From: a virus
Length of the DNA: 28,969 bases
Direction: 5' to 3' (one strand)
Virus record (IMG/VR): IMGVR_UViG_3300005287_000001
A program made the translations under genes and the position numbers. The notes beneath the pieces are model-generated. The model searched no databases and was not told the origin of the DNA. It was given only the letters and a program-made list of their open reading frames with translations. How positions within the stretch are numbered: position 1 is the first letter of the stretch; each line of letters opens with the position of its first letter. Below are positions 5,847 through 28,969 of the stretch, piece by piece.

Positions 5847-5851
5847 ATTAA

Positions 5852-9571: not shown

Positions 9572-12252
9572 ACTTCTTTTAAAGTTATGGTTGAAGATGC
9601 CATTCTCATATCTGTATTAATAGACAAAGGATAAAATGTTTTACCTAAATATCCGATAGTATAGGTATTGAATGGACTAACATTAATAGTATTATTATCT
9701 AGTGTTGTTTCAACTATTATCTTAGGAGTATTGAACTCTTTATAATAGTGATCAACGTATAGTTTCTCAGCATAGGCTGTTATGCCTTCATTATTATCGG
9801 TAAGGTTCTTAAAGGCTGAATTGTCACTAACATTAATTGCCGTTGATATATTAATCGTCGGGGCTGCAACACCTAATTCATAAGCCTCAGATGCACTTAA
9901 AAGAGTATTGATATTAAATTCAACATCATCTTTCTTCTTTATATATTTGTCCGTTTCATCTGAACAGTAAACAATATCAGCATCCCCATCATTTTCTATA
10001 TTACCATTATCGCTAACAATCTTACATTCAAAGTCCTTTATAACAATAGCACTGATGTTGTCTAGTACATTCTTACTGTTGGCATAAAACTTAGTGCTCC
10101 TAAACATAGTTGGATGTCTCCTCCACACAGTAACGAACTCACTATTTACTGGAGCAATTATACGGAATTCTAATTGTCCATATAAATCAGAAGGAATAGC
10201 AATTGCAGTACCTTCATTATCTCCTAAATTCATACTGTCTGTAATGTTGTTAGAGATGTCAAATTTGTTACCAACTATGTAGTCACCAATATTTGGATCA
10301 TATCCTAAAGAGAATGATGGTATTGCTTCCTCAACAACTGATGCATCTGCTGTACCACTAGTTTTAGCTGTTTCCCATTCTTCCTTAGTCATCCATTTAT
10401 AAGTACTGTCATATCCCCAAACCTTATTACCATCACTGTCTAATGTATAGTTACAAAGTTCTACACAGTACTTATCACCAACCTTTAATTGGCATTGTAA
10501 AATACCTATCTTACCAATATTATCTGATACTGAACCATCGCTGTTATAAGCATATTTCCAAGTATCATTTTTCCAATCTTCATCTGGATCAGAGAAATAA
10601 AACCTATCTAAATAATATGGATAATTAGTTGGATGTCCAGAAGTAAGTTTATTAGTACCAGTACTGTCATAGAAGTAAACTCCATAACGACCATTACCAG
10701 AACCTTCTCTGTTATTGTCTACAACTGACCACCAACCATCAGTATACCAACTATGATTTAAAAGTGGTTGCAACATCATCTCACCACTAAAGACAAAATA
10801 GTTAGTTGCATCATCACCACCAATCTGTCCCCAAGCTGCTGCTGTGGTAGATTTGTAAACTATAATACCAGTATCCTCTTCAACTGCTTTATTATAAATA
10901 GTCTGGAGGTAATTACCAATTTCAGCAAACTTAGTTTCACTATCATCACCACTACCATTAACTGTAATAGTTATATAATTCTCCATACTATCTGGAGCTT
11001 TATAAGTAGTAGATGAAGCAGTACCAGCCTTGTGTTCTGTATGTCCCCACTTAGCTAAGAAAGGACAATACTTATAATTCTGTACCTAATCATAAAAGGC
11101 AAGGCTGTCAGTACTAAGTGTTCCGTTATAAACTGATTTGAAGTTTGAACCATCAAAGTAATTGAAGTCCCAACTAGCATTATAGGCTAATTTTGTAAAG
11201 AAGTCTGTTGCTTCTTGTGCATCATAGCCATCATCATAGTCATTCATCATCCAGTTATGGAAACCACTATTAGATGATTTACCTTCACCAAATGCCCATA
11301 TTTCAGTCATATATCTCTTCCTGCGAGGCCATAAAGATGTAACTGAATCATCATCCATTGGAGATGAAATAACATCTTCTATAGACTCTAATTTATCTGT
11401 AACTGCTATCTGATTATAAACATCAGCAACAGAAATATCTGTATCATCTGACATATAATCATTAACAGTAACGGTTAAGGCTTCTGAAGTAAGTGTAGAA
11501 GCAGTATCTCCTCTAAGAGTAATCCAACTAATGTTGTTATTCTTTACACTGTTCCAATCAAATATATAGAAGTCCTTACCTTCTTGTATAATATGTAAAT
11601 TAAGGAATTTAAGGATCTCTTCCAGTAATTCCTCATTTGTATACATATCATCAAAATCCTCTCCTAAAAAGAGGTTTTCAGAAACACCAACAGTTGTAAA
11701 GACATTCTCACCATTATTAGTTTTAGAACCATCATAATAAATACAACCGTCAGTATCACCAAATATAATATCTAAATAATCATAGAATGACCTAACTTCA
11801 CTATCAATTTTTCTGGCATTATAAGCACTTTCATTTGATGCTAGATAGTTGTATTCCAGAGTTGCCAGAAAATCGGTACAGTTAATCTTTATTGAATTGT
11901 ATGTTTCACTATATGGCTGTGTATAGACATTAGGTTCTATATGGCCATAAAAGACTACTGTATCTCCTTTAGAGACCGTTACTGTAGTATCTGATGGCTT
12001 ACCAGCAAACAAATAGTCACCTAACCATTTAGTACTATAAAATTCAATCTCTGCGGATTTCTTTATTATGTGTGTGAAGTTATCCTCACATTCTGTTTCT
12101 ATCTGTAACGGATCATCGCTGAAGTAGCACATAACATTACCATCGGAATCAGTTGTTTCCTCAAAGGTAATGTTAGTGCCTACAGCTGTGGATTCAATAA
12201 CTACAGTTACTAAATCATCGTTAATGTCTTTAAAACTACCAGTTATTTTCAT
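9568..12252 (-). CDS. Distal-tail / baseplate-hub protein, 894 aa if the single TAG at 11086 is read as sense; equals track ORFs 11086..12252 plus 9568..10986
   Basis: Both ORFs are in the same frame. They are separated only by TAG (11086-11088) and 33 open codons. The position directly after the tape measure matches the Dit/Tal slot. The ATG overlaps the TMP stop, and TGA is at 9568-9570. The function is assigned by synteny only. Confidence 0.55.
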
Positions 12253-15176
12253 TATTTTATTCCAGTATTTTTACCTACTGTTCCTTTTACTTTACTATAA
12301 TTTCGTAGTGCCATATATAAGTCAGAACCTTTAATCCTAACTTCACCACCTACAACTCCTCCAGTACCACCACCGTTGTCCAGTATGTTCCAGAGGTTAG
12401 CTTGCTGGCCTTTAGTAAGTACAGCTTCACCACCGTTTACTCTAATTAGATTTTGGTCACCTACAAATCCATTGCCATTAACAATACCACCATTAGCAAA
12501 TGCACCAGATATAGAAGCAATAGCTGCTATAACTGCAGCAACACCCATTGCTATAGCTACTATGTTCATTGGGAAAGGCATACTAGAACCACTAGCAGTA
12601 GCACCAGAAATACCCTTAGCTGTATTAGCTGCAACTATTGTACCAGCATTAGCAACCTCTTGTTGTGCATTTTGATTCTTAACCTATTGGTTAGCTGTTT
12701 CAGAAGCTGTCAGCATATCAGTAGCCATCTTTACTGTATTCATTATAGTCTATACAGATTGTAAAGTAGTAGTAACCACACCTACAACACTAGTAAAGAT
12801 CTCCCAAGCACTAGCACCTTCTTCTATTGCAGATACCATATTGGAAACTGAACTACCAATATTATCAATGGCACTAATAGAATCATTAAGATTATCTAAA
12901 CTTAGCCCTTCTGTATCAATCTCCAGTTTTAATGGTTCTAGACCTTCCTTCTGGAGTATTTCATTAATTTTAGCTAGTTCAGCCTCTGCCTATTTCTTAT
13001 TAATGCTACCAATCTATACATCAGTTTGTAAATTAGATACTGCTGTCTATGCATTACTATAAATTTCTCTCTTATTTTCCCTAGTTTGTTGTGGAGTCTT
13101 TACAGTAACAGTTGGAGAAAGTTGATTAAACATCTTCTACATCTCCTCCTTAGTTGGCATTTTAATCTTAGGTGTTACAACTGGCACTAGAGATTCAGCC
13201 TTAATAGACTTTTCTAAATCTTCTTTAGCCTTCTTTAATTCATTAATCTTACTTTGTAAGGTAACAGAAACTGACTTATCTGCAGATGCATTAAGTTGCT
13301 TAGATAATTTAGATATTTCTTGTGAATACCAATCTAGTGAACCTTGTGCTGCAACATCAGATTTCTTAGTAATGCCTTTGGATTTTCTACTAGAAGGTTT
13401 ATTATTGTTGTCAGAAACTACATCAAGTTTATTTGTTAAACTTTTGGCAGCCTTCTTTATTGCATCAATTCTCTTTTGTATATTAGCAGCAACTGCTTTA
13501 TCTGTAGTTTTATTAAGTTGTTTATAAAGCTTGTTTAGTTCATTACTATACTACTGAAGCTTTTTTGTTGATGGATCCTTAGTCTTATCAGTGGTATTGT
13601 TGTTTTGCGTCAGGCGTTTATTGTTGTCTGCTTGCCTTTTAAGATTGTCTGCCATTTCCTGTGCGGCCTTTTTCGCCAATTGGTCTTCCGTTCCTAATAA
13701 CTTTCGAACAGGGGCAAATGCTGCATTGGCTGCTCTGTTAATACTATCAAGCCAATCAACAACTGTCTTTAACCCATTTACAAGCTTTGTAACAGCTTTA
13801 ATAGCTCCAACCTTTATATCTGATACAAACTCATCCCAACCTTTACCAGACACATCAAAAAGGCTTATGATTGCTCTCTTTAAATCTTCGGTAGCATCCA
13901 TCTGTTCTTTGGCAAGTCTTACTCCTTCGGGTGCGTTATCGTAAAGTTCCTGCATATTACCCTTAATATCCTTAATGGTAGTTAAGAACTGATAACCTGC
14001 GTCTTCACCCGGACCTCCGAAAATGTCTGATATAGCCTGTCCAACCTCTTGTGCCTGTGGTGACATTTCTGACATTTTTTGACTAACTTGTTTCATTACA
14101 TCAAAAGTGGTAATAGAACCATCAGCTAAGCCCTTCATAACCTTCTTTGAATCAATGCCGATTGCGTCAAGTGCCTTTTGTACTGCAGGTGACATTTCTC
14201 TAATTCGGATATTTGCTTCCTTAATGGAATCTACTGCCTTATCACTAACAATACCTTGCTGCTGACTTCGGATTATTGTTGTAGATAGTTCGTCAATACT
14301 CATCCCTGCTTCTTTTGCGTAGGTAGAGTACTCCTCCATTTGAGATTTGTACTCATCCTTATCAACGGCAAGGTTTAAACCATCCTATATTGAATCTGCT
14401 GCTTCTTGAAAACTTACACCCATCTGTCTCGCAACAGTGTTAGCCGTCTTAACAACGTCATCCATACTCATACCAAACTGCTCTGCTGTTGTTTCGCAAG
14501 TTGCTCTAAAATCTATAAGGGCTTGACCTCCAAGTCCTGTGAACTGTTGAATGGCCTGATTTGCTTTTGAACTCTCAGCATTGAAGTCTACAAAAGCCTT
14601 TGCACCTGCTATAACACCTGCTGCAACTGCAGTAATACCAGCACCTTTAATCATCGTACCACTAAGTTCTGGCATTTTAAAGTCCTTCACACTAGCCATA
14701 GATGATTGTAGGTTCTTACTAAATGAGGTTATATCTCCACTCTTTAAAGAGCTGATCATATTAGATATGGAATTACTAAGATCGTCTACAGATGATTTTG
14801 CACTATCCATAGCTTCCTTAGTTTCACTAGCAATCTTACTCTATATATTAGTATATCTTTGTAATTCACCAACTAAAGTTTTATAAGCACTACTAGTTTC
14901 CTTACCTTTATCAGCTAAGTTGGCAAGTTCTTCTTTGATATTCTTTATTTTACCTTGTAAAGTCTTGCCAGAACCTCCTAATGCCTATAAATACTTTCGT
15001 ATTTCTTTCTCATTATCACCGACTGCATCGGTTACATCATCCAGATTGCCCTTTAATTTTTTAAGACCAGCTCTTTCAGATGCATTATTAAGGTCTTTTA
15101 TGTTATTGATGGCATCTTTTATACCACCAGAAAATTTACTGGTATCTAGTACCAGTTCTTCCTTTAATTGTCCCAT
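12252..15176 (-). CDS. Tail tape measure protein, 974 aa, with 10 in-frame TAG codons
   Basis: One frame joins 14985..15176, 14385..14810, 13551..14339 and 12252..12581. I checked every intervening codon. TAG codons start at 14985, 14841, 14385, 13551, 13137, 13047, 13014, 12990, 12750 and 12684. There is no internal TAA or TGA. The product is alpha-helical and Ala/Lys/Gln-rich with a Gly-rich C-terminus. TAA at 12252-12254. Confidence 0.85.
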
Positions 15177-15810
15177 TATATTATACCCTTAGATTTAAGT
15201 AATTCTTCTCTTTTCTTAGCTTTTGCAAGCATCTATTCTCTCTTCTCTTTGGTCATTGTTACTTTAGGGAGGTGCGGAACTTCTTTGTCCCAACTAAATT
15301 GTATAATATCTTTGGGCTTTAGTTTCTTTTTAGAATTGGCTTGTGCAAGTATGTAGCAGATAGACCTAGTTTGTTCCCAGTCCTCTCTGACTGAATATCC
15401 CATCTTTTTTATAATAGGTTCTAGTTCATATCGCTACATCTTGTCCATAAAATACTCTACCGAAACACATTTATATTGTAGGCAAAGTAAACACATTAAG
15501 TCCGTAAACGTAATTACTTCGCCATCCCTTTTTTTTCTGCTTGTTCTCCCTGCTGTAAGCTCTTGCTACTATCAACTACCCATTGATTAAACTTAGCAAA
15601 CTGATCTGGATTACTGTCCAACCAGTCTAAGAAATCATCAAACTTCAGTTCAATGTCTGGATAATTAGCTAAAATCACCGCAAACATATAAGTAATCATA
15701 TCTGATACTGTCTGTGGATTAAACATCTTACTTGTTATAGTTTCATATATAATATATGATCTGAACTTATTTTTAAGTTCTAATTCGTTACCGTTAATTG
15801 TTATTTTCAT
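15176..15810 (-). CDS. Tail assembly chaperone GT-type fusion made by -1 frameshift; the T part has 2 in-frame TAG codons
   Basis: After the A8 run the -1 frame stays open for about 118 codons (KKRDGEVITFTDL...KREELLKSKGII). It runs to TAA 15176-15178, which overlaps the tape-measure ATG. TAG codons are at 15434 and 15233. Confidence 0.6.
15514..15810 (-). CDS. Tail assembly chaperone (gpG-like), 98 aa
   Basis: It lies between the major tail and tape measure genes. It is acidic, with a slippery run near its 3' end. TAA stop and no TAG. Confidence 0.7.
   Translation of the reverse strand: MKITINGNELELKNKFRSYIIYETITSKMFNPQTVSDMITYMFAVILANYPDIELKFDDFLDWLDSNPDQFAKFNQWVVDSSKSLQQGEQAEKKGMAK
15529..15536 (-). 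promoter_or_regulatory. Slippery A-run (A AAA AAA G) for -1 programmed ribosomal frameshifting
   Basis: The zero frame reads GCA GAA AAA AAA GGG, 5 codons before the chaperone stop. The -1 frame is open downstream. Confidence 0.6.
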
Positions 15811-15825
15811 ACTGCTTATAAATTA

Positions 15826-15857
15826 AAAAAAAGGAGGAATCTACAAAGACCCCTCCA
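15826..15857 (-). terminator. Rho-independent terminator after the major tail protein gene
   Basis: Minus strand reads GGAGGGGTCT-TTGT-AGATTCCTCC, a 10-bp stem with two G-U pairs, followed by T8. Confidence 0.75.
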
Positions 15858-15874
15858 TAACTATTAATTATCTA

Positions 15875-16339
15875 TCAACCGTTTGTACTAGCAGTGGTTT
15901 TAACTAATGCACCTACACCGTTGAAGGATACACTGTAAGTAGCCAGTTCACCGTTACCTGCTGTCATAGATATACTAGAGATAACTGCTTTACCAGAATA
16001 CATATCATTGCTGGAAGTCCAACCACCTTCTGGTACGATGTGTCCATCATCATCTGGATCTGTCGTTTTATCTTTATTAGCTACAGTAGCAAATACGAAG
16101 TCCAAAGACTTACCAGCTAACATAGCATCTACTAATTCAGTGTAATCTGCTACAACCATAAGGTTATCACTAGTAGCTGACCAGCTCATTTTACCTCTCT
16201 TGGTAGCTCCCCACTGTCCCGTATCTTTACAACTGATGTCAATATCATCAGAGTTGATTTCTACACTACAAGAAGTAGCGCAACCTAAAGTTTTACCACC
16301 CAAGAATACTTGGATGTCTTCACCCATTAAATTAGCCAT
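15875..16339 (-). CDS. Major tail protein (TP901-1/phi13-like)
   Basis: 154 aa, in the expected position. The pattern GGKTLGCATSCSVEINSDDIDISCKD...WSATSDNLM is typical of this family. TGA stop and no TAG. Confidence 0.75.
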   Translation of the reverse strand: MANLMGEDIQVFLGGKTLGCATSCSVEINSDDIDISCKDTGQWGATKRGKMSWSATSDNLMVVADYTELVDAMLAGKSLDFVFATVANKDKTTDPDDDGHIVPEGGWTSSNDMYSGKAVISSISMTAGNGELATYSVSFNGVGALVKTTASTNG

Positions 16340-16345
16340 AATAAA

Positions 16346-16729
16346 TCAAAAAATTATATTTGTTTCAAATGTTAGAGTTTGAATATATGCATCTTCTATA
16401 AAATTTTCCACCACTCCAGTAAGATAAATCCTACCAAAGTAATCATCTCTATGTAATTCTAATATCTTCCTTATTCGTTCAGCTATTGTAGCCGTTTCAC
16501 TATAGTTCTTAGAAGCTATAGCTATAGAGAAAGTAATACTATCCTTTACTACATTAGTTTTAGTATATTCTGTACTAAGAGAATTTCTAGTAAATATGAT
16601 AAAAGGATAGCTTACTGACTCTTCTGCCACAATAGGGAAAATATTATTACCTACTAATTCGGATAGTTCACTATCTTCTTTTAGTAAGGCATATAAGTAT
16701 TTATTAAAACTAAGACCAGTAACTTTCAT
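16346..16729 (-). CDS. Tail completion / tail terminator-like protein
   Basis: 127 aa. It lies between the neck genes and the major tail gene. TGA stop and no TAG. Confidence 0.55.
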   Translation of the reverse strand: MKVTGLSFNKYLYALLKEDSELSELVGNNIFPIVAEESVSYPFIIFTRNSLSTEYTKTNVVKDSITFSIAIASKNYSETATIAERIRKILELHRDDYFGRIYLTGVVENFIEDAYIQTLTFETNIIF

Positions 16730-17175
16730 TGATTATATTTTTTATATATTTTCTCTATAGCATTTTCCAAATTAGATTGTAATGACTGCTCCACTAGTTG
16801 TGAGGTATCAGCAACTGCTTTACTAAAGAAGTGTGTTGCCTCCATCTTACCTCTATACTGACCAGATTTATTATAACGACCGACTGTTCCGTTTTCAAAG
16901 AACTTTAATTTAAAATTGCCTTTATTGGAATTACTGATAATCTCAGTTCTTCCAGATAAACCACTTTTACTTACTTTTACTATTACACCACCCTATAGTG
17001 TTAGACCCCATTTATCTGGCTTATTATATGCGGTAGTTACTCCCATAAGGTTCTGAACAGCCTTTCGTTTAATAATATTTAGAGATTGTGTCATTCCAGA
17101 TCTGATAGCTGGTTTTAGTTTTTCAACTTCAATAGCCTTTAGAAATTGCTCTAATTTTCTACTGTCTAATTTCAT
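16726..17175 (-). CDS. HK97 gp10-like neck protein, 149 aa, with 1 in-frame TAG
   Basis: The 16993..17175 fragment continues through the TAG at 16993 to TGA 16726-16728, which overlaps the next ATG (ATGA). Assigned by synteny and size. Confidence 0.55.
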
Positions 17176-17489
17176 TCAGTAATCAGTTCTGTAGTTATTA
17201 CTTTCTTGTTCTAGTCCTTTACTGGCTCAATTGCCAGTATTCTGTATTTCTTAGAATCCCATTCTATATAATCTGTTTCAATAACATCTACATAATAGTA
17301 TACCTCAAATGTCTTATTGTATATATAAACTAGAGCATTATTCTCTGTCAATCTGTTTCCAGAATTGTGAATAATTCTTGCTCTAGTTGTGACATTCAAA
17401 GCGTACTCTTGTACCTACTCACCATAGTCATTCTAAACTGTAGTTGTTCGGTATATATTTATAATATCAGTCAATAATCCTGCTCTCAT
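17172..17489 (-). CDS. Head closure / head-tail joining protein, 105 aa, with 3 in-frame TAG codons
   Basis: Product is MRAGLLTDIINIYRTTTV(Q)NDYGE(Q)VQEYALNVTTRARIIHNSGNRLTENNALVYIYNKTFEVYYYVDVIETDYIEWDSKKYRILAIEPVKD(Q)NKKVITTELITE. This is the typical Phage_H_T_join pattern. The TGA at 17172-17174 overlaps the next ATG. Confidence 0.7.
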
Positions 17490-17514
17490 ATCATACACTT
17501 TGACGTTAAACGTT

Positions 17515-18741
17515 TTAACTCTTTACCAGTATTGCTTTACCCTCACTATCAGTAGATTCGGTAAATGTATATCCAGCATTAGATAATCTGGCAATCAGCC
17601 ATTCTTTGGTTGTGTCAGAACAGTTGGTAACATATACAGTTGTCAATAAGGTACAATGGTCAAACATATATGTATAGTTAGTAACTGCTGTGCTATCAAA
17701 ATTATCCAGATGTATAGTTTTTACTGCATAACAGTAACGGAACATACTATTAGTATTAGTAAGTACTGATGAGGCTAGCCAACTAACATCTATATCCTCT
17801 ATAGACTGCCAATTATAATGCATACCACCAACAATAGTTGCAACTGTATTCTATGTGGTAGGTGCTGAATAACTAGTAATTTTCGTAAATCCAGATAGGA
17901 AGCTACTAAAGTTAGTGCTTTGTGATACATCCCATTTACTAAGATCTAAAGATGTAATTCCAGTATTGTTATTTAAATCTAGGAACTGTTCAAAGGTAGT
18001 AACCTTAGAAGTATCAATTTCACCTATATTTAATTCCTTTAGACTGTTGCACCTATAAAAAGCTCTCTTCATATTGGTTACTGCTGAAGTATCCATACCA
18101 TTAAGTGTAACTGTTTCTAGTGCAGAACACTCATTACACAAATAGTTTAGTGTAGTATTAGAGGAAGTGCCAGTAAATCCAGATAAATCTAAGTTCACTA
18201 ATGAGGAGCAAACATTAAACATAGCATCCATAATAGTAACTGCTGTTGGATTCCATCCAGTTAAATCTATAGATTTTAGAGATTTACAAGACTAAAACAT
18301 CTGACTCATATTAGTAACCTTAGAAACATCCCACATAGATAAATCTAAGGAAGTTACTTTAACACAATTATTAAACACCCTATACATATTGGTTACATTA
18401 GAAGTATCCCATCCAGTAAAGTCAAAATTAACTAAAGGAATATTACCAGTATTGTCATTAAATATTCTATCCATAGTTGTTAGATTGCTGGAATCACAAT
18501 ACTTTAACCAACTCATATCATAGGTTTTAGTGGTATCAAATGCGTTATTAGTCCACCTAAAATTCCACTAATTAGGTAATACAATACTAGGTGGTGCAAT
18601 ACCTTCTATAGAAGTAACCTTATCTGCATAGCTTCTAAAAGTGTCACTGTCAGAAACAGTAACACCTTTATTAACTAATGCCTCTTTTATCGCTGTTTTA
18701 GTATCATTTAAATATGATAACTTTTCCGATATAGTTCCCAT
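17515..18741 (-). CDS. BspA-like leucine-rich-repeat (26-residue surface-protein repeat) protein, 408 aa, with 3 in-frame TAG codons
   Basis: It joins 18292..18516, 17851..18231 and 17515..17823 in one frame, with TAG codons at 18568, 18292 and 17851. The repeat F..C..L.SLDLS.WDVS.VT.M..MF recurs. The N-terminus is MGTISEKLSYLNDTKTAIKEALVNKGV. TAA at 17515-17517. Confidence 0.75.
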
Positions 18742-18743
18742 AA

Positions 18744-20831
18744 TTAAACCTCCTCACCATTAATTGTATCCAACAGAGTAGATATATTACCAATAGTACT
18801 TTCAATCTCAGTTATTTTGGCTGTAATAACCTTATTCTGTACTGGATTCTCTGAAGTATCAGATAGTTCGGAATCTACAGTAACAGAACCTCCTCCACCT
18901 TCAGAGATAACCTCTTGAAGTGATTTAGCAGAATCCCAATTGGTGCCGTCATAATCACCAATACCTTTTATATAAGTGTAACCGTCTGCCATTATTTGAA
19001 GAACATTGCTTCTTGCGTTAATAGAACCATCACCTATTGTAAATTTAGTACCGTTGTGGGTAGTATCTGAGCCACTTGTTACAAATTTATTGTACTGTCC
19101 CAATGCAACTTCCGCTTCATTTACAGCATAATTATCCTCACCTATTGCAACTGAATATTTACCTGTTGCTTGGTTACTTTGTCCTATTGCAACTGACGGC
19201 TGACCATTTGCGGATGCAGAATTACTCATACCAATGGCCGTTGAGGCATAACTATTTGCAGCATTAGAATATCCAATAGCCGTTGAGGCATAACCATATG
19301 CCTTATTACTACTACCTATAGCAGCACTATATTGACCACTAACAGTATTATAACTTCCCAAAGCATAGGTGTAATCGTAGGCCTGTCTATTATTATTGTA
19401 TTCACCAATCATATAACTATAAGCACCTGCTTTATTGTTGTAACCTGCTGCAAAACCATATTGACCACTTACTGTGTTTGAGCAACCTATGGTTGCACCA
19501 TACATTGCACTGATGGTATTGTTACGACCTGCTGCAAATCCATACTCACCACTAACGGTATTTGACTCACCGCCAACAAGAGCTTCTGATTCAGATACTT
19601 TATTGCTTGTGCCAAATACAGCCGAATAACTACCCTTTGTTATGCTATTATCGTAACCTGCCACAAAATTTTGGTAAGTATTGGCCGAAATGGTAATATT
19701 ACTGCCAAAAGCTGCTGATGCCTTACCTTCAACTGTATTGTCACAATCTACTTCAGTACCACTCCAATGGGTGTAAGTACCTTTCATCTTTATTGAACAG
19801 TCACCATCATTAACCAAATTAAGAGTTGAGTTAATAACATTATCATCTGTTATTTCTAAAGAAGTTCCTGCGGTATATTCTGTTCCACCTCCAGTAGCTG
19901 ATATTACATTATCAGTAATAGTAATGTTATCACCTGCTGTAAGTGTGTTTTGCTTAGCAGCCAACAACTCATCTGTAGCTGTTTTATTATAGTATTGTGT
20001 AGGATCGAATGTTCCACCTCCTGCAACTTTCTCATCAATAGTAGCCTTATCATAAGTATATTCTGAAAGGGCTGTACTATCTATATAATCACCAGCATCC
20101 TATTTATTGGCTAGTGCTGTATTTACTTCTGTCTTATATTCAGTAAAGGTAGTATCTGTTACATAATCACCTTTATCCTATTTTGTATCTAGATCCTCTT
20201 TAGTTGCATAGCCATCTAATGACTAATGCTCTGTAAGATAGCCAGCATCATTAGTAAAGGCAGATACTTTAGTAGGAAAATCTGTAATATCTGTAGTTGT
20301 ATGTGTATGTTCTAAGGCTGCTTTATTATTAAGTACAGCCGTTATAACTTTATTTTGAACTGGATTTTCAGAGGTTTCTGACATCTCATCATCAACTATA
20401 CCTCCACTATTCTCCAATGCTGTAACTCTCTAATCTAAACTATCTTCAGCAGCTAATGCTCTAGCTATTTCTGTATCAATTGCCTTCTTTAATTCTTCTA
20501 AATCAATTTCGCCAATATCAGTAGTATCGCCAGTTCCATAATTTCTGTAAAGATCTATAAGGAAATTATAACTGTTTGGAATCTCTACTGCTGTCGTATA
20601 GGCTACTGATTCTCTGTTGGCATAATAGTTACCCACCAATAAAAGTAAGGCTTGTTTCAGAGGAGCAGGAATGTCACCTTTATCATCCTCCAAATCAGTT
20701 AAATATACATTAAGATGCTTAGCAATAGCACCTTCACAAGCCAGAATTAGGGCTGATATGTAATTATCATCTTCTGTAAATGTATCATTTATATTAAGAT
20801 GTTTTTTAACTTCATCAACTGTTATATACAT
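18744..20831 (-). CDS. gp6-like head-tail connector domain fused in frame to a fibre with YadA/Hep_Hag-like repeats, 695 aa, with 4 in-frame TAG codons
   Basis: The N-terminal ~103 aa read MYITVDEVKKHLNI...DIPAPLKQALLLLVGNYYANRESV...LIDLYRNY, which is the Phage_connect_1 pattern. The same frame continues with no TAA or TGA through TAG codons at 20430, 20223, 20178 and 20100. It then enters a coiled coil, HTH..DI fibre motifs and SVAIG/STAIG repeats. TAA at 18744-18746. Confidence 0.65.
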
Positions 20832-20839
20832 ATCACTAT

Positions 20840-20888
20840 AAAAATAAAAAAAGTGCAAGCAGGTAACTCTAAGTACCTACCTGCACTT
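20840..20888 (-). terminator. Hairpin plus T-rich run after the major capsid gene
   Basis: A 13-bp stem with 2 mismatches forms between 20853-20865 and 20874-20886. On the minus strand it is followed by TTTTTTATTTTT. Confidence 0.5.
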
Positions 20889-20912
20889 TAAAGGTTATTA
20901 ATTAATCAAAAA

Positions 20913-22130
20913 TCAATTTTCTGCAATAGTCTTAGCTACGATAGCTTCTGCTCTACGAGGTTTAGCATCAAAGTAAGCATTAACAACCAAGCGAACTTCG
21001 CCTTGATCAGCGAGTGTATAAGGATCAACTGTAAGGTCTATAGCACCCCACTGTGCAATTACATAGTCAGCAAAATTACCAACTACAATACCCTTAGCAC
21101 CAGCAGCTACATAAGCAGGAGTACCATCAATCTCACCATTCTCAAAGATCATACCAGTGTTGTTAGTACCCTTAATAGTGCTACGAAGAGTAGCCTTTAC
21201 AGATGGACTAACAATATAAGTATAGTCACCAAATACTTTGTTGTTCTCAAGTTCAGCCTCTAATTCACAAATATCCTTATAGTCAGCACTAATTGAACCA
21301 GCACCGTTAAAGATACCTGCAGGTTGGTTAGCTGTACCAGCAGCATCACCTAAGATAGTAGCTTGGAGCTTGTCTGTGATAGCATTTATAATATCTCTAC
21401 GCAACATCTCATCAGCAGCAGCAGAATCTTGGATCAAGAATTGCTTTGATACGTTAATCTTAGTTGTAAGACGTTTTGGGGTAAGTAATACTTCACCAAA
21501 TTCTCCTGCACCATCGTCAGCAGCTTCAATTTCACCCTTCCAAGTAGCAGATGTTCCAGCATAAGTAGGTATAGAAACATCACCAACAAGTCCAGTAAGT
21601 ATAGTAGCACCAGCTTTAGCAAGTACTAAGTTATCTCTTAGTGGATCGAGGATATTCAATTTTTCCTCTGCAACTACTTCTTGTCCAGCCGTAGCAACTG
21701 TAGCTTGTACATCAGCTCTTTCCTCAACTGGCAACTGTATTTGGCCATTGAATGAAAGGCCAGATTTACGCATTTCTGCTTTACCAACGTTAATTACTGC
21801 TTGTGCAGACTCGTCTAATTGTCTTTTATCAGCTATACTGCGAATAGCTTTTACTAATGAAAATTTATTCATACTTCTTTCCTCTTCTTCTTCTTTTTCA
21901 GCCTTTTCTTCAGTAGGCTCTGGTTCGTTATCGTCTTTCTTATCTAATTCTTTGTCAATCTCAGCAATTTGTTCTTTTATTTCTTCCAACTCAGCTTGCT
22001 CTTCCTCGTTTAATTCTCTCTCCTCTGACTGAGCAGTGCTAAGTAATTCGTTTGCGTCTTTGATAAGTTGCTCTTTCTTATCAATAAGTTCTACAGTATT
22101 CATACTGCGAAATGAAACTTTCTTCTTCAT
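20913..22130 (-). CDS. Major capsid protein, HK97 fold, with an N-terminal acidic coiled-coil (scaffold-like) region
   Basis: 405 aa. It follows the prohead protease. The N-terminus is Glu-rich. TGA stop and no TAG. Confidence 0.9.
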   Translation of the reverse strand: MKKKVSFRSMNTVELIDKKEQLIKDANELLSTAQSEERELNEEEQAELEEIKEQIAEIDKELDKKDDNEPEPTEEKAEKEEEEERSMNKFSLVKAIRSIADKRQLDESAQAVINVGKAEMRKSGLSFNGQIQLPVEERADVQATVATAGQEVVAEEKLNILDPLRDNLVLAKAGATILTGLVGDVSIPTYAGTSATWKGEIEAADDGAGEFGEVLLTPKRLTTKINVSKQFLIQDSAAADEMLRRDIINAITDKLQATILGDAAGTANQPAGIFNGAGSISADYKDICELEAELENNKVFGDYTYIVSPSVKATLRSTIKGTNNTGMIFENGEIDGTPAYVAAGAKGIVVGNFADYVIAQWGAIDLTVDPYTLADQGEVRLVVNAYFDAKPRRAEAIVAKTIAEN

Positions 22131-22138
22131 ACTTTATT

Positions 22139-22729
22139 TTATTTAACTAATAAATTCTTTCGTAAATTAGAGTAATATTCAGCAAGTTTTATCTTGCGTA
22201 ATTCTTTATTCTCAGCTTCTTTTATTAAATCTAGGCCTCTAGTATCTACAACAACACTAGTAGCGTCATAAGCAGCTCTATAAACTGGTGAAACATCAAA
22301 CAATTCATTAATATGTGTTATGATTCGTAAGTAAGAACCATCATCTTGTTTCTCCCATTTGTCCTCTGCAACAGTAAATGCAAAACTAGATGTAGATATA
22401 TCACCCCTTTTAACACCTTCTAGTAATTCATCACCTAATGCAGTATGTGGTGCTTCAAACTTATACATAAGTCCTATATCGTCTATACTTAAAGATAGAC
22501 TACCAACACCTTGTTTAGATCTTGCAAGAACACCCCTTTCTTCATTATGGTCTAATAAGGCCAGTACATCCGATTGATCTATAACACCTTCTAGAGCTGC
22601 TGGATCTATAATCTCAATAAATCCACCTAAATCATTAGATGGAGTATTAAATACAGCAGCATAACCACTAATCATACGGCTATCTACTGTATCCAATCCA
22701 ACATCACCAATATTTCTTTTTTCTATCAT
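22139..22729 (-). CDS. Prohead serine protease, HK97 family
   Basis: 196 aa with ...SGYAAVFNTPSNDLGGFIEIIDPAALEGV...LLDHNEERGVLARSK.... TAA stop and no TAG. Confidence 0.9.
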   Translation of the reverse strand: MIEKRNIGDVGLDTVDSRMISGYAAVFNTPSNDLGGFIEIIDPAALEGVIDQSDVLALLDHNEERGVLARSKQGVGSLSLSIDDIGLMYKFEAPHTALGDELLEGVKRGDISTSSFAFTVAEDKWEKQDDGSYLRIITHINELFDVSPVYRAAYDATSVVVDTRGLDLIKEAENKELRKIKLAEYYSNLRKNLLVK

Positions 22730-23988
22730 ACCTCTGTATTCGTTACATCCTCTTGTTTAACAATCTCCTCATTCTCTATTCTGTTATCTGTAGCTACATT
22801 ATTACTTGCATTTTTTAAAGTCATAAGATTTACTTGGCAGAAATGATTATCACCACCATCAACGGCTGGCAAATCAAATTCTTTTCTTATCTCATTAACT
22901 GATACAACACCAATATTGAATAAAGTATTGTAATAGTTAGCAAGTGACTCTTTATCTGTTCTAAGTAATCTGGATGTATCAAATCTTACCTAAATAGAAT
23001 CTCTCTCCGATGGCTTATACAATTTCCTTTCAAACTCTAACTCTATCTTTTCAAGCATAGGAGAAAGTGTATCCGTTAAGAATGATAAGTTTGTAGCTTC
23101 AACAGTACTATAGGAGCTATGAGATAAATCAAAGGCTTTTACTGGAGAAACTCCGAAAAATCTACATATATCTACCACATTGAACTCTCTAGTTTCTAAT
23201 AACTGAGAATCCTCTGGATTAACAGTAATTGGTTCATAGGTCATATTACCCTGCAGAACGGCAATACCATTAGGATTGCCAGTTTCTGGGCTGAATGCCT
23301 AATTCCAACTGTTTTTTAAATCTTGCTATTGTTTGGTTGTAAGACTAGATTCAACTTTAAGAATACCAGCTAAGTTAGCTCCACCTTTAAAGAATCCTGC
23401 TGAATGTGCTTCAGCATTATTAGCCAACTCCAAAGTATTCCTTGCATATTTTAAAGTGGATATACCAGTAATGCCATCATTACTAAAGTTAAGAATATGT
23501 ATCATATTGCAAGCCTCTACAATACCTTTAATACCTTTTACTGAGTAAGTAATATTTTCCTCATAGGTGCGAGGTTCAATAATAGTCACATATTCAGAAG
23601 GAATAAAGTGTAAAGCAATAGCATCACCAGCTAAATTCCTTTGTATGTAAGCATATCCATTTCCTTTTAAGAGTACACTAGTTACCAGTGTTTTCAAGAA
23701 TGTAAATCTAGTCATTCTCTTGTTTGGTTCTGAATTTAGAATCCTATAAGTAGGGTGTTGAACGAATTTACTTCTATATCCCTAAGCATCCACTTTGTAA
23801 GGTTCTAGTGGAAGCTGGGCTATAGAATCAGAAATTACTTCTACACACCTATATACTGCTGATAGTAATAAGGCCTTATTAGGTGTAGCCGTAAGAATAT
23901 TACTACCAAACAGTAAGTAGTCAAAACCAGAACTTCTTTGTTCCATTTGAACTGGAACTACTTTCTACTTTTTACTAAATAATCCCAT
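22726..23988 (-). CDS. Portal protein, HK97 family, 420 aa, with 5 in-frame TAG codons
   Basis: The ATG at 23986-23988 overlaps the TerL TAA (TAATG). One frame joins 23326..23715 and 22990..23244. TAG codons are at 23965, 23782, 23326, 23299 and 22990. The TGA at 22726-22728 overlaps the protease ATG. Confidence 0.9.
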
Positions 23989-25607
23989 TATATAACTAAT
24001 ATTTCATTTGTATAGTGTGGAGAATCTAAATACTATCCTAATGCTTCTATTATGGCTATTACACCATCTATCTTTTTACCCTTAACTGCTTTGTTAGGTT
24101 TAATGTTACCGTTATGATCTGATTTTAGTTGTACATTCTTAAAACACCATCTGGTAATCTCATTATTAAAGATAACAGCTTTGCCAGATAGTAGTAAACG
24201 TTCCAATTCTCTGGTTGGTTTATTAAAGTTACCTAGAGTCTGTGGATACTCAACTAAAGGTAATCCCATCTCTGTAGATTTAATAGCCCACTATGTGGCA
24301 TTGTACTTATCATAACCAACCGATTGTAAGTTCACTACATCAGCATATTTCATCATATCATTAGTAATATAGTCATAATCAGTAACATTACCAGCCGTAA
24401 TATGTAATATACCCTAATTCTTCCAACTCTTATATAATTCTCGGTCTGGTTTCTCTATTAAAGCAGATTCTGGTAGATAGTAATCTGTCCAGAAATAGTA
24501 AGTATCATCTTTAATAGCCATATAAGCAACAGCAGTCAAATCTGATGTGGCAGCCAAATCCACACCACAATATACATCACAATCTCTAAATGTATGCCAA
24601 TCAAAATCAGATGAAGCCTTAACAATATAGTGATCTGGTAGCCATACATCTGCTACGTCACACCACAAGTTTAAATTCTTAGTCTTAACTGATACTTCCT
24701 CTGATGGATTGTTTGTTGCTTGTTGTACCTATTCTCTAAGATATTTTTTAGTAACAGTAACATCTAAATTAGGAGTACATTTTACCCAATTCTCTTCTTT
24801 AGTCCAATCATCATCAACATCTAAAGAGTAAATAGCAACAAATAAAGAATCATCCTGCTTTAAGTTATGTAGAATTTCCACACAAGTTTCTCTTAATTTA
24901 TAGCAGGGCAAAGTCTTATCAAATCCAGCAGTTGTAATAGTACACAAGTGAGGATTTTGTCGCATACCCATAGATGATTTTATTACATCCCTAACCTTAG
25001 ATGTTTTAGCTGAGTGATATTCATCGACCAAACCAAAGGAAGCATTAAATCCATCCAGTTTAGAATCATCAGATGCAAATACTTTTAAAGAAGAGTGATT
25101 AGCATCTAAAAAGATCCTATCCCTATATGCTCTAAGATACTTAGATTTTGGATCTAGTTGCTTAGTAAAAGTCTGACAAAACTCATAAGCAATCTTAGCT
25201 TGCTCCTTACTATTAGCAGCCAAATCAACCTCAGCACCATCCTCACCGTCAGCTATTAAAAAGTAAAGACATAAGCCAGCAGCTAGTGCTGTCTTGCCAT
25301 TCTTTCTGGAGACTTCTATATAACTGCTGGTAAACCGTCTAGTACCGTCAGTTGTATAGAAGCCTACAATATTAGCTATAATAAATTGTTGCCAGTTCTC
25401 TAAGATGAATGACTAGCCAGAAGAACTACCCTTAAAGTGTTTCAGCATTTTAAAGAAGTTAATTGCTTTATCTACTTTATCCTCTCTAAAGGTAAGATCT
25501 GTTCTTTGTAAATCATTCTGGAACCTCTAGCAAGCCAAATATATCAGTTCACCAACCAAGATTCTTTTATTAAGGACATCATCAACATACTGATAATATC
25601 CTTTCAT
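23988..25607 (-). CDS. Terminase large subunit, 539 aa, with 6 in-frame TAG codons
   Basis: The ATG at 25605-25607 overlaps the TerS TGA. One frame joins 24729..25223, 24414..24668 and 24033..24269. TAG codons are at 25527, 25413, 24729, 24414, 24291 and 24033. The motif is ...FILENWQQFIIANIVGFYT...YIEVSRKNGKTALAAGL... (Walker A). TAA at 23988-23990. Confidence 0.9.
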
Positions 25608-25978
25608 TTATTGTCTTTTAAAAAACTGTCTAATGGTGAATCTTCCTCATCATTATCTAATGCATCTATTTTCTATCTATCCTTTGGTGTTAGTCCAAAC
25701 TTCTCCATTACTTTAATGCAAGCAGTTTGTGCATCCTTGCCAATTTTAACTGCAGGATGCTCACTAATATTACCCCTATCACTTCTAACTGTTATGCCTT
25801 CTTTTTCTATAAGCTTATTGGCCTTTATAAAAGTAGAGTAGTTTCTAGCCAGTATCTGTAATGCTCCCGTATCAACGTCAGCTAATATTCCCTTTGATTC
25901 TAGCATATCAATGACTACTTTCATATAAGCCTTAGCCTCTGCTTCAATACTTTTAGGCATTATAAATTCACCCGTCAT
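25604..25978 (-). CDS. Terminase small subunit (P27-family-like), 124 aa, with 1 in-frame TAG
   Basis: The 25673..25978 fragment continues through the TAG at 25673 to TGA 25604-25606 (ATGA overlap with TerL). Confidence 0.75.
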
Positions 25979-26081: not shown

Positions 26082-26113
26082 TTTGGAAAATGTAAAATTA
26101 CTAGGTATATTTA
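26082..26113 (+). promoter_or_regulatory. Candidate early promoter with -33 TTTG and -7 TATATTTA
   Basis: TTTG at 26082-26085 and TAtaTTTa at 26106-26113, a 7/8 match to TAnnTTTG, with 20-nt spacing. It lies about 28 nt upstream of the ATG at 26141. Confidence 0.25.
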
Positions 26114-26140: not shown

Positions 26141-26299
26141 ATGAAAACAAAAAAATCTGGATTTGTTGGTGTAAGATTAACACCTCATTAGGAGTTTGAA
26201 CTATCAAATATTGCTAGAGAACTCAATTTAAGTAAGAGTTAGGTAATCAGATGTAGTATTGATAACCTAATAGAATCATATTATAGCCCTATAGTGTAA
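26141..26299 (+). CDS. Small ribbon-helix-helix-like DNA-binding protein, 52 aa, with 2 in-frame TAG codons
   Basis: Product is MKTKKSGFVGVRLTPH(Q)EFELSNIARELNLSKS(Q)VIRCSIDNLIESYYSPIV. This is a beta-strand then helix-helix pattern of CopG/MobC type. TAA is at 26297-26299. The last 15 nt overlap the tRNA. Confidence 0.5.
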
Positions 26300-26359
26300 A
26301 GGTTAGCACCAATATCTCTAAAATATTAGGTCTCAGTTCGATTCTGAGTGGGGCAACCA
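26285..26359 (+). tRNA. Amber suppressor tRNA, anticodon CUA, reading UAG
   Basis: Hand-folded cloverleaf.
- Acceptor stem: 26285-26291 with 26349-26355, six pairs including one G-U; position 1:72 is A-A.
- T at position 8.
- D stem: GTGT/GCAC, with GG in the D loop.
- Anticodon stem: AATAT/ATATT. The loop is CT-CTA-AA, with the anticodon at 26318-26320.
- Variable region: 4 nt.
- T stem: CTCAG/CTGAG, with loop TTCGATT.
- Discriminator A, and an encoded CCA. Confidence 0.85.
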
Positions 26360-26370: not shown

Positions 26371-26532
26371 ATGAACAGAACAGAAACTTTTATAGAAATG
26401 TGTGAGGCAACAATAAATATGGCAAAATTAGTAAAGAAATTTGCCGTTGATTATGGCCTGCAAGATAATCCAATTTATATAGATTACCAAGATCAACTTA
26501 ATAACCTAAGTGTAGTTTATGAAGAAAATTAA
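26371..26532 (+). CDS. Hypothetical protein, 53 aa
   Basis: The ATG at 26371 lies 12 nt after the tRNA. Product is MNRTETFIEMCEATINMAKLVKKFAVDYGLQDNPIYIDYQDQLNNLSVVYEEN. TAA stop and no TAG. Confidence 0.4.
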   Translation: MNRTETFIEMCEATINMAKLVKKFAVDYGLQDNPIYIDYQDQLNNLSVVYEEN

Positions 26533-26998
26533 AAACTGGGATAGTTATAGACGTAAATAGTGTAATATAGAAAAAGCCGTTTACAACCCAGAAGTAAATA
26601 ATCTAATACAGAAAAATTATATACCATTATACCAATCTTTAGTAAAGAATGAATGGGATTTGACCTATTTTTAGGATGCTTTCCTAAAGATAACACATTA
26701 GTACAATCCAGAAGAGGATTTTGTGTAGCAGTTTATACATCTTTTCAAGATAATGAAAGGTGGTTGTATCAGAGATGATAATGCATTACTAAAGATAAAT
26801 CAAGAAGATATGTCAGTTTATTCTGGATATAATGATGTATATGTAAAGTAGAATGGTAATGAAGTACTATTGCCATTTAGTTTTGAACAAGAAGATACAG
26901 TAGTAGCTAAAACTAATAATAAACTAAAGGATGCCTTACTTAAAGAAAGCAGAGAAGCCAAAAATAAGAAGCGACATAAAACGCAAAACTAGGAATAA
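26519..26998 (+). CDS. Hypothetical protein, 159 aa, with 6 in-frame TAG codons
   Basis: The ATG at 26519 overlaps the previous gene's end. TAG codons are at 26558, 26672, 26699, 26726, 26849 and 26990. TAA is at 26996-26998. The 3' end overlaps the HNH start by 68 nt, so the true end or the HNH start is uncertain. Confidence 0.45.
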
Positions 26999-27314
26999 GA
27001 TCTACACCACCGCTAAATGGTCTAATTTGCGTAAAAGTAAACTAATGTTCAATCCTTTATGTGAATTATGTCTGGCACAGGGTAAAGTAACTCCAGCTAC
27101 TGATGTTCACCACAATTATTCCTTCCTAAACATAGATGGTAGTATAAACTATGATAGATGCTATGACTATGGAAATCTAATTAGTTTATGTCACTAGTGC
27201 CATTCAAAAATTCATAAATAGTATGGCCGAACAGAAGGAGAGGTAGGAAATCTAATATATGCCTTAAATAGAGAAAAAGAAAAAATTATTTCAGAATCAG
27301 AAGGACAAAAATAA
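26931..27314 (+). CDS. HNH endonuclease (packaging-associated type), 127 aa, with 2 in-frame TAG codons
   Basis: The track ORF 26931..27197 ends ...NLISLCH at a TAG. Read-through gives LCH(Q)CHSKIHK(Q)YGRTEG..., which completes the HNH C..C / H motif. TAA at 27312-27314. Confidence 0.85.
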
Positions 27315-27854: not shown

Positions 27855-28969
27855 ATGAAAGAATTTATTATTGAAGGTGGAAATCACCGTTATTTAAGTG
27901 AATTAAAAGAATTTCAAGATGGTCTACCAGTTGGTGTAATAAATAAGACTAAACCAGATGTTGGCGGTACTTACACAGCAGCCAATTGTGATAGTAATTA
28001 CATTATTGTATGTCCCTTTAGGGATCTAGTTGATAGTATATGTGCTGATACAAATAATAAATATCCAGTGCTGAAGGTTTATCAAGGAGTAAAAGAATCT
28101 GACTTTACTAAGTATATGCAAAGTACTACGGTACATAAAATTGCTGTTACTTATGATAGTTTTAGTAGTAAAGTAATAAAGTGGATTAGTAAGTATGACA
28201 ATACCAATAACTGGAAAGTTCTAATTGATGAGTACCACTTAATTTTGGAGGATATGGATTATAGAGAGGATGCCATAGTAAATCTAATAGAGAGTGTACA
28301 CAGTTTCAAACATTACTCTTATTTGTCAGCAACTCCAATTAATGTGGATCTGGAAATAGATGAGTTTAAGAAATTGCCACATTATACAGTAACTTGGAAT
28401 AATGTAAGGAATATTTCGGTACAGAGAATTAATTGTTCTCAACTTACTAGAAGCGTCTTAGCCGTTCTTAATTCATTCATAGATGGAACACTAAGTATTG
28501 GTGGTATTAAGGTTGAAGAATTATTTGTATTTTGTAACTCGGTAACCTTTATTAAAAGACTGCTGGAGACTTTGGAAGTAGAACCAGAGGATGTAAAAAT
28601 CTGCTGTGCTTACAATAAAAGGAATGTACAAGTTCTTAACCGTTATCAAATAGAACCAATAACCAATCCTAATAAAAGATTGAACTTCTTTACTAAGAAA
28701 GGATTTCAAGGATGTAACCTATTTAGTAATAATGGACTAGTAATGGTTATTAGTGATGGCAACAAAGAAAGTACTTTAGTAGATATATGTACAACTATGG
28801 AACAGATTGCTGGTCGTTTGAGAGAGAATGAGAAATACCACAATATTTTTGGTAATGTAATGTTTCACTTCTATAGTAATGTCAAATACAATCTTACTGA
28901 TGAACAGTTCAATAAGATTATGGAGGACAAAATGGATAGAGCAGAAATCTTAATTAGTGGTTATAATAA
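27855..28969 (+). CDS. SF2 DExH helicase-like protein, N-terminal part; continues at position 111 of the window through the circular junction
   Basis: ATG at 27855. I read every codon to 28969 and found no stop. Motifs are KPDVGGTYTAAN (degenerate P-loop), VLIDEYH (motif II, DExH) and YLSATP (motif III). It is missing from the supplied track because it has no stop inside the linear window. Confidence 0.75.
   Translation, partial: MKEFIIEGGNHRYLSELKEFQDGLPVGVINKTKPDVGGTYTAANCDSNYIIVCPFRDLVDSICADTNNKYPVLKVYQGVKESDFTKYMQSTTVHKIAVTYDSFSSKVIKWISKYDNTNNWKVLIDEYHLILEDMDYREDAIVNLIESVHSFKHYSYLSATPINVDLEIDEFKKLPHYTVTWNNVRNISVQRINCSQLTRSVLAVLNSFIDGTLSIGGIKVEELFVFCNSVTFIKRLLETLEVEPEDVKICCAYNKRNVQVLNRYQIEPITNPNKRLNFFTKKGFQGCNLFSNNGLVMVISDGNKESTLVDICTTMEQIAGRLRENEKYHNIFGNVMFHFYSNVKYNLTDEQFNKIMEDKMDRAEILISGYN

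Follow-up and report, generated by a model that had tools for sequence, protein, structure and literature searches.

How could a small phage whose late genes are interrupted throughout by TAG codons be translated in a bacterial cell? The question is raised by a 75-nt element in IMG/VR virus record IMGVR_UViG_3300005287_000001. The DNA analyzed (the window, 28,969 nt) carries at positions 26285-26359 a transfer RNA (tRNA) gene with the anticodon CUA. The original prediction, made from the letters alone, had described this element as a phage-encoded amber suppressor and as the decoding tool of recoded genes, with weak support for charging with glutamine. Comparison with related phages and with other tRNAs now indicates that the tRNA is probably a functional amber suppressor that descended from a tRNA-Gln and inserts Gln at UAG.

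The CUA tRNA

ARAGORN found a single tRNA in the whole 28,969-bp window, 75 nt long, at 26285-26359 on the plus strand and with the anticodon cta at position 34. The Rfam model RF00005 matched 26285-26356 over its full length, with a score of 53.9 bits (gathering score 29) and an E-value of 3.7e-9. Both programs place a valid, canonical cloverleaf at the coordinates first proposed, and the register chosen by ARAGORN agrees with the letters in giving CUA, which pairs with UAG. Divided by arm, the sequence is AGCCCTA-TA-GTGT-AAAGGTTA-GCAC-C-AATAT-CTCTAAA-ATATT-AGGT-CTCAG-TTCGATT-CTGAG-TGGGGCA-A-CCA. It contains U8, G10, G18G19 within an 8-nt D loop, a 7-nt anticodon loop (C32-U33-CUA-A37-A38), the T loop TTCGATT, the discriminator A73 and an encoded CCA. 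The acceptor stem begins with an A1.A72 mismatch, which was the sole non-standard pair in the Rfam alignment, followed by G2-C71 and C3-G70. Each of the diagnostic positions named in the original prediction (U8, the GG of the D loop, TTCGATT, U33, A37, the CCA, the A-A at 1:72, G2-C71 and G10) is present, and the element has the form of a canonical elongator tRNA with an amber anticodon in the correct register.

A family covariance model was built from 24 related CUA tRNAs. The window tRNA scored 86.9 bits with this model, as compared with 15.4 bits for the second-best site in the window. Compensatory changes were found in 18 of the 20 stem pairs of the 24 tRNAs and the CUA anticodon was invariant, which indicates that the family is under selection. 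On this evidence the window tRNA lies far above chance and is part of that family.

ARAGORN labeled the gene 'tRNA-Pyl', which is merely the program's name for a CUA anticodon. A genuine pyrrolysine tRNA, or an initiator-like tRNA making use of the 1:72 mismatch that is a textbook hallmark of bacterial initiators, fits the rest of the molecule so poorly that it can be given almost no weight. A tRNA-Pyl has a small D loop lacking G18G19, a 6-bp anticodon stem, a 3-nt variable loop, a T loop that departs from the T-Psi-C consensus, and a pylS partner. The window tRNA has the elongator traits G18G19, T54-Psi55-C56, an 8-nt D loop, a 5-bp anticodon stem and a 4-nt variable loop; pylS, pylB, pylC and pylD were not found in the window, and a 28.9-kb genome has no room for them. 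An initiator would be expected to have three G-C pairs in the anticodon stem, which here is AAUAU/AUAUU, and the 11:24 pair is U-A, the elongator type.

TAG recoding of the late genes

Because its ends carry an exact 110-bp repeat, the window represents a circular genome in full, of 28,859 unique bp and with a G+C content of 33.7%. Its gene content is that of a temperate siphovirus of the HK97 type with a serine integrase, as judged by profile matches, and the phage origin first claimed is borne out by genes for terminase, portal, capsid, tail, endolysin and integrase. When the standard code was applied, the minus strand between 3.6 and 26 kb was broken into fragments that TAG read-through fused, and the longest open reading frame (ORF) grew from 539 to 1254 aa. 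The resulting late block encodes the small and large terminase subunits (TerS and TerL, with one and six in-frame TAGs, respectively), the portal (five), orf18744 (four), orf17515 (three), the tape measure protein (ten), two tail genes with 1 and 11, and an M15 endolysin (four). The other late products are a prohead protease, the major capsid, tail terminator and major tail proteins, and further tail proteins. TerL matched PHROG 9 (E 2.6e-142) along residues 8-529, spanning all six of its in-frame TAGs, and the portal matched PHROG 12 (E 5.7e-108) along residues 1-412, spanning five. The fusions thus restore full-length TerL and portal proteins, in keeping with the recoding on which the original prediction relied. 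TerS belonged to Pfam Terminase_4 and the endolysin to Peptidase_M15_3.

The window contains 68 in-frame TAGs in 17 of its 26 genes, or 22% of the Gln-type codons if TAG is counted as Gln, and all 26 genes terminate with TAA or TGA. In other words, in-frame UAGs stand in genes that need read-through. The plus strand encodes a large serine recombinase, a secreted protein, a 600-aa protein whose gene crosses the circular junction, and a short module adjoining the tRNA. The integrase, junction and secreted-protein genes together have no TAG among 39 Gln-type codons, and the integrase should be translatable in the standard code of the host because it has none. TAG was also absent from the genes for the major capsid, prohead protease, major tail and tail terminator proteins, despite their position inside the recoded late block; TAG may be avoided in the genes with the highest expression. 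These TAG-free late genes lie at 20913-22729 and 15875-16729 on the minus strand, and the capsid gene has 16 CAA/CAG codons.

No release factor or aminoacyl-tRNA synthetase was found among the window proteins with PHROG and Pfam. The CUA tRNA is the sole decoding device that the genome was found to encode, which agrees with the role originally assigned to it.

Relatives and the meaning of TAG

Relatives were collected by TerL searches and comprised 29 viral contigs, 8 reference-genome contigs and further metagenome contigs. All of the low-GC relatives were TAG-recoded, with 1 to 15 in-frame TAGs in TerL, and the high-GC relatives used the standard code. The named genomes were those of an uncultured Prevotellaceae bacterium, metagenome-assembled genomes (MAGs) of Sodaliphilus, Bacteroidales and Muribaculaceae, and Segatella copri. 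The S. copri records were one MAG and the isolate iAP1412, in which the relative appears to be an integrated prophage because it lies on a 331-kb contig. Further relatives were found in an Oscillospiraceae MAG (standard code, no TAG in TerL) and a Candidatus Avigastranaerophilus MAG (two TAGs in TerL), and others, on contigs as long as 224 kb, had Bacteroidetes-specific genes as neighbors. From these placements in Bacteroidales genomes or beside Bacteroidetes-specific genes, we infer that the host of the window phage is a member of the Bacteroidales. Megablast of 20000-28969 against phage records found no near-identical relative, and an exact 26-mer of the window tRNA was absent from the viral contigs searched.

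A protein-level column test of TerL with 120 database homologues placed Q opposite four of the six TAGs. This test was dropped in favor of DNA-based tests, because it is circular: the database proteins of recoded phages had already been translated with TAG as Q. For proteins P0001-P0120 and loci L038-L043, the recoded-phage genes do not yield the stored protein under table 11.

In the DNA-based tests TAG was kept as X in every sequence, and columns with a TAG plus at least three sense residues were evaluated. Q was the majority residue in 44 of the 175 TAG-containing columns (25%), as compared with 1.6% of 3727 background columns. This is a 15-fold enrichment at clade level (p ~1e-38), while K was enriched 1.4-fold and E 1.6-fold. 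When only conserved TAG-containing columns were considered, 15 of 30 were Q, versus 0.7% of 1044 control columns. For the 145 columns in which TAG occurs in relatives only, a Codetta-style profile likelihood gave Q +65 bits and the runner-up residue -195. Between pairs of sequences at least 90% identical, exchanges of TAG numbered 99 with CAG, 24 with CAA and 19 with AAG; a single step separates TAG from either CAG or AAG, and Lys codons are several-fold commoner than Gln codons. These results indicate that TAG encodes Gln at clade level, where it aligns with Gln as in genetic code 15. Metaproteomics has shown TAG to be translated as Gln in crAss-like phages (PMC9523058).

Several TAGs of the window itself fall in columns that were Q in every sense sequence, namely those at TerL 293 and 439 and at position 14 of orf26519. 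The TAGs shared with relatives lie in such all-Q columns, whereas those unique to the window lie at variable, Lys-rich surface positions. The S-X-H motif of the endolysin was compared with the Protein Data Bank, where one distant M15 enzyme was found, carrying S-R-H, which is no guide to the residue read at TAG.

The tRNA body and the 1:72 pair

A search of 2.9 million viral contigs with a 17-base motif of the acceptor and D arms (CCCTATAGTGTAA...GCAC) found, counting distinct tRNAs, 14 tRNA-Gln (11 UUG and 3 CUG), 8 CUA tRNAs, 3 tRNA-Arg and 2 odd long tRNAs, and a motif of the T arm and acceptor matched 10 CUA tRNAs and one odd long tRNA. Nucleotides 2-25 of the window tRNA were identical to those of the tRNA-Gln(UUG) of L065, L071 and L090, and its 3' end (...GGGCA-A-CCA) was that of the tRNA-Gln(CUG) of L057 and L078. 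With the anticodon masked, the window tRNA was compared with 245 distinct reference tRNAs, all phage-borne. Identity was 0.81 to CUA tRNAs, 0.80 to Gln, 0.72 to Arg, 0.65 to Lys and at most 0.70 to other isotypes; a 94-nt tRNA of L056, called Ile(UAU) by ARAGORN, tied at 0.81 and had acceptor, D and T arms in common with the window tRNA. The comparison of tRNA bodies thus placed this tRNA closest to tRNA-Gln, anticodon ignored, within a phage-borne reference set. Its body is of the tRNA-Gln type. In annotated phage records the nearest tRNAs were the CUA tRNAs of Dulem virus 42 (76%) and cr125_1 (74%).

Five long tRNAs were found that share the acceptor, D and T arms of the window tRNA and have a long extra arm or insert (L001 1948-2036, L047 12152-12240, L056 458-551, L059 9984-10074 and L077 959-1051). 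Two are 89-nt CUA tRNAs, and three, of 91-94 nt, were called Ile(UAU) by ARAGORN.

The first base pair was examined in 24 distinct CUA tRNAs and 24 sense tRNA-Gln genes from loci L001-L093. The CUA tRNAs had U.U in nine cases, U.G in eight, U-A in three, G-C in two, U.C in one and A.A in one, the window tRNA. A non-Watson-Crick 1:72 was therefore found in 19 of 24 CUA tRNAs but only 4 of 24 sense tRNA-Gln, of which 20 had a Watson-Crick pair (U-A in 19); the contrast is significant (Fisher p ~3e-5) with phylogeny ignored and with a few ARAGORN boundaries one nt off. A73 was present in 20 of the 24 CUA tRNAs, while the sense tRNA-Gln had A73 in 9 and G73 in 13.

In E. coli, amber suppressors readily accept Gln, and the 1:72 pair, which glutaminyl-tRNA synthetase (GlnRS) must open, sets Gln identity together with 3:70 (PMC9976931). 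Because GlnRS has to open this pair, a pair that is open from the start would be a reasonable compensation for the lost G36, and the open 1:72 of the CUA tRNAs may act in this way. Among Bacteroidetes, GlnRS was present in 13 of 14 surveyed genomes and GatCAB was absent in 12 (PMC3927822); since these bacteria charge tRNA-Gln directly by GlnRS, direct glutaminylation of a CUA tRNA is plausible. The E. coli Gln identity set consists of G73, U1-A72, G2-C71, G3-C70, G10, U34/C34, U35, G36, A37 and U38 (PMC9976931), of which the window tRNA keeps G2-C71, G10, U35 and A37, with C34 as in the CUG isoacceptor. The A-A mismatch had at first been taken as weak support for Gln charging. The column and codon evidence of the clade, the tRNA-Gln-type body and the recurrence of an open 1:72 allow that support to be upgraded.

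The neighborhood of the tRNA

The start of the late operon is flanked by a divergent plus-strand module made up of a ribbon-helix-helix-like (RHH-like) ORF, the tRNA, orf26371, orf26519 and an HNH endonuclease gene, in that order (Table 1). The module was kept across the clade, and it is co-linear with TerS and TerL in the standard-code relatives. Homologues of the RHH-like ORF were found in most relatives and those of orf26371 adjoined the tRNA in L005, L031 and L049. No Pfam or PHROG match was found for orf26519, whose translation would depend on the tRNA.

Table 1. Positions of the tRNA gene and of other features in the window
Feature	Position	Strand	Basis
Terminal direct repeat, exact 110 bp	1..110 = 28860..28969	.	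Assembly of circular genome
Large serine recombinase (integrase)	2067..3662	+	PHROG 95, E 2.6e-56; 0 TAG among 16 Gln-type codons
Late block (packaging, head, tail, lysis), main user of the tRNA	3605..25978	-	ORF fusion, PHROG, Pfam, codon counts
Candidate sigma-70-like promoter, TTGGAA-17-TATATT, upstream of RHH-like ORF and tRNA	26083..26111	+	Consensus only, 9/12 matches
RHH-like ORF, 52 aa, 2 TAGs	26141..26299	+	Weak match to PHROG 876 'transcriptional repressor', E 0.002
Predicted amber-suppressor tRNA, anticodon CUA at 26318-26320	26285..26359	+	ARAGORN, Rfam, family covariance model
orf26371, small ORF directly downstream of the tRNA, 53 aa, 0 TAG	26371..26532	+	Translation
orf26519, conserved ORF, 159 aa, 6 TAGs	26519..26998	+	Translation, homologues in relatives
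HNH endonuclease, 2 TAGs, last gene of the module diverging from TerS	26931..27314	+	Pfam PF01844, E 1.9e-5; conserved synteny
600-aa TAG-free gene, 5' part, continuing at 1-795 over the circular junction	27855..28969	+	Translation, codon counts

The position of the tRNA within the module varied. It was found between orf26519 and the HNH gene in L002, L026, L070, L082 and L085, and after the HNH gene in L001, L005 and L031, and some other relatives had no tRNA. This variation suggests repeated gain, movement or loss of the tRNA. The RHH-like ORF takes its TAA stop codon from nt 13-15 of the tRNA, in the D arm (GUG-UAA), so that the two genes overlap by 15 nt (26285-26299). The same overlap of a stop codon with the tRNA was found in relatives (L005 ~4330-4341, L082 ~10981-10995, L085 ~2965-2979), and the upstream gene differed by genome, being the RHH-like ORF, a homologue of orf26519 or the HNH gene. 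Since the ORF ends inside the tRNA, processing of the tRNA would remove the 3' end of the upstream mRNA.

The tRNA was also considered as an attachment site and rejected, as it lies ~4.6 kb from the integrase gene across the junction. Serine integrases do not typically target tRNA genes. Two other proteins of the window may be mentioned. For the 600-aa junction gene, relatives show a faint DEAD-helicase Pfam match. The 408-aa late-block protein at 17515-18741 on the minus strand, with three TAGs, contains repeated 'LDLS.W(D/N).S.VTNM..MF..C..L' units and resembles leucine-rich-repeat proteins.

Alternative readings

A number of observations weigh against a Gln-inserting suppressor on which the genome relies. 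They concern the amino acid, the need for the tRNA and its expression.

As to the amino acid, the likelihood over the window's 30 testable TAG columns was -16 bits for K and -28 for Q, and eight columns had a K majority and four a Q majority. Lys codons were as frequent as Gln codons opposite the window's TAGs (AAG at 12 sites, AAA at 10, CAA at 10, CAG at 9), and these 30 columns taken alone cannot separate Gln from Lys. The best TerL match anywhere was only ~75% identical, which makes a short-distance codon test impossible for the window genome. In addition, the window tRNA has no more than about half of the E. coli Gln identity set, the departures being A73 for G73, C3-G70 for G3-C70, A36 for G36 and A38 for U38. 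A73 is a Lys determinant in E. coli. Mislysylation of amber suppressors is possible in the same species (PMC1483225). These data would suit a tRNA that suppresses amber and carries another amino acid, most likely Lys added by the host lysyl-tRNA synthetase and less likely Glu.

Such a tRNA is nevertheless unlikely. Relative to background, Q was enriched 8-fold at the window's TAG columns and K only 3-fold. The Q columns at TerL 293 and 439 and orf26519 position 14 are invariant, while the K-majority columns tolerate A, G, N, S, T or L. The column and codon evidence of the clade is overwhelmingly for Gln, and the window shares ancestral TAGs at invariant Q sites. The tRNA body is much closer to tRNA-Gln than to tRNA-Lys. 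Both C3-G70 and A73 (the latter in the 9 of 24 genes noted above) occur in sense tRNA-Gln of the same phage collection, which indicates that the E. coli Gln rules are probably not transferable unchanged. The C31-G39 pair that discriminates Gln from Lys in E. coli (PMC1483225) was considered and found inapplicable, as it is a rule for E. coli only and the window tRNA carries U31-A39. Taken together, TAG probably encodes Gln in the window genome as well.

As to the need for the tRNA, the S. copri-group relatives are more heavily recoded than the window (TerL has 14-15 TAGs and the tape measure gene 20), yet neither ARAGORN nor Rfam nor the family covariance model, run unfiltered, found a tRNA in them. 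These genomes are complete at 25-28 kb and are fully covered by pairs of loci such as L022+L096; the tRNA-less loci were L022+L096, L035, L033, L008-L011, L013, L016-L018, L027-L029 and L094-L106. The best covariance-model site in them, at 16.7 bits, was rejected as background, as it lies inside an ORF and has no CUA loop. Because these relatives are heavily recoded and have no detectable tRNA, a phage tRNA cannot be the only way in which the clade reads TAG. They fit the report that suppressor tRNAs were detected in just 40% of TAG-recoded genomes (bioRxiv 10.1101/2021.08.26.457843).

The tRNA of the window could then be dispensable or decaying, with TAG read by a host factor, a helper phage or an undetected RNA, and its A.A at 1:72 is unique among the 24 CUA tRNAs. 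This is less likely still than a different amino acid. All stem pairs except 1:72 and all conserved tertiary positions are intact, and a non-Watson-Crick 1:72 is the rule in the CUA family and so not a sign of decay. The compensatory changes and invariant anticodon point to purifying selection, and relatives have kept or regained the tRNA at several sites in the module.

As to expression, 16 sigma-70-like sites were found around the tRNA where 8.8 were expected, and no convincing promoter was found among them. No Bacteroidetes-type TAnnTTTG was present on the plus strand in 25979-26284, and a terminator scan around the tRNA found none.

A model for decoding and its implications

We infer charging by GlnRS, co-transcription, a timing of expression and a regulatory role for the Gln-inserting suppressor, in the following way. 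The tRNA would be transcribed from the plus-strand module, without any need for translation, probably together with the RHH-like ORF, and would be freed by host RNase P and 3' processing. The GlnRS of the Bacteroidales host would add Gln, recognizing C34, U35, A37, G10, G2-C71 and the already open 1:72. The charged tRNA would then place Gln at the 68 UAGs in competition with host release factor 1 (RF1). The integrase, the 600-aa protein and the secreted protein would be made in an unmodified host, while the packaging, tail and lysis proteins would reach full length only with the tRNA present. Because the latter need the tRNA and the products of the TAG-free genes do not, the tRNA may act as a switch that licenses the lytic program. 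A code switch of this kind is the published model for recoded prophages (bioRxiv 10.1101/2021.08.26.457843).

The window phage would be a compact and complete example, in which lytic genes are written in a different code from lysogeny genes and one 75-nt gene is the apparent switch. With 29 kb, one tRNA and no release factor or synthetase found, it may serve as a minimal system for the model that a code switch controls lysis versus lysogeny, and it could reveal how RF1 is outcompeted by a suppressor in genes with as many as 11 TAGs. Standard-code pipelines mis-annotate and overlook recoded genomes of this kind, whose hosts are probably abundant gut bacteria, Segatella and Prevotella among them.

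The features most worth further work are the 1:72 pattern, which is a concrete, testable hypothesis on the recruitment of host GlnRS, the mobility of the tRNA within the module, and the tRNA-less relatives. A doubtful but broader proposal joins them: natural phage amber suppressors that arose from tRNA-Gln would obey a design rule, with an opened 1:72 and A73 making up at GlnRS for the absent G36, and the tRNA would be a mobile cassette, perhaps acting in trans. If it acts in trans, heavily recoded tRNA-less prophages such as those in Segatella copri would need, for a complete lytic cycle, a relative with the tRNA or some other suppressor source within their cell, and would thus be dependent through the genetic code.

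Comparison with known systems

Recoding of TAG to Gln with suppressor tRNAs is already published for phages, including small temperate phages of Prevotella. Code 15, the crAss-like and Garnet-type phages and proteomic validation already describe the phenomenon well. The most similar group is the 'Garnet' clade of TAG-recoded temperate Prevotella phages (bioRxiv 10.1101/2021.08.26.457843). Its genomes are likewise small (34 +/- 5 kb, curated 24-25 kb) in comparison with the 28.9 kb of the window. As in the window, recoding is concentrated in one structural and lysis block, the integrase is TAG-free and the hosts are Bacteroidales (Prevotellaceae), and a suppressor tRNA-CUA is carried by some members only. 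Membership in Garnet is set by TerL phylogeny (at least 95% bootstrap); the window resembles the clade in these descriptive traits. The window phage has a serine integrase, whereas its relatives L040-L043 carry tyrosine integrases.

The crAss-like phage cr125_1 encodes a tRNA-CUA (NC_055900, 75225-75298, annotated tRNA-Gln) that also combines a CUA anticodon with a Gln-like body, and its 74% identity to the window tRNA extends over nt 7-75. Its 1:72 pair is U.U rather than A.A. The crAss-like phages are virulent podoviruses of ~100 kb, in contrast to the 29-kb temperate phage of the predicted HK97 siphovirus type described here.

In E. coli supE (glnV/glnX), a tRNA-Gln with A36 in place of G36 is charged by GlnRS and inserts Gln at UAG. 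The logic proposed for the window tRNA is the same (identity set in PMC9976931). However, supE arose by point mutation of a chromosomal gene and has U1-A72, G73 and G3-C70, while the window tRNA has A1.A72, A73 and C3-G70 and would serve a genome that depends on it.

The opal (TGA) systems of the Lak and Jade phages are alike in that a phage suppressor tRNA reassigns a stop codon in late genes. They differ in reading TGA as Trp and in that they may add a phage release factor (RF1/RF2) and tryptophanyl-tRNA synthetase in standard code, neither type of protein having been found in the window. The code-change modules of Jade are written in standard code, whereas the ORFs that flank the window tRNA contain TAGs themselves (two in the RHH-like ORF, six in orf26519 and two in the HNH gene).

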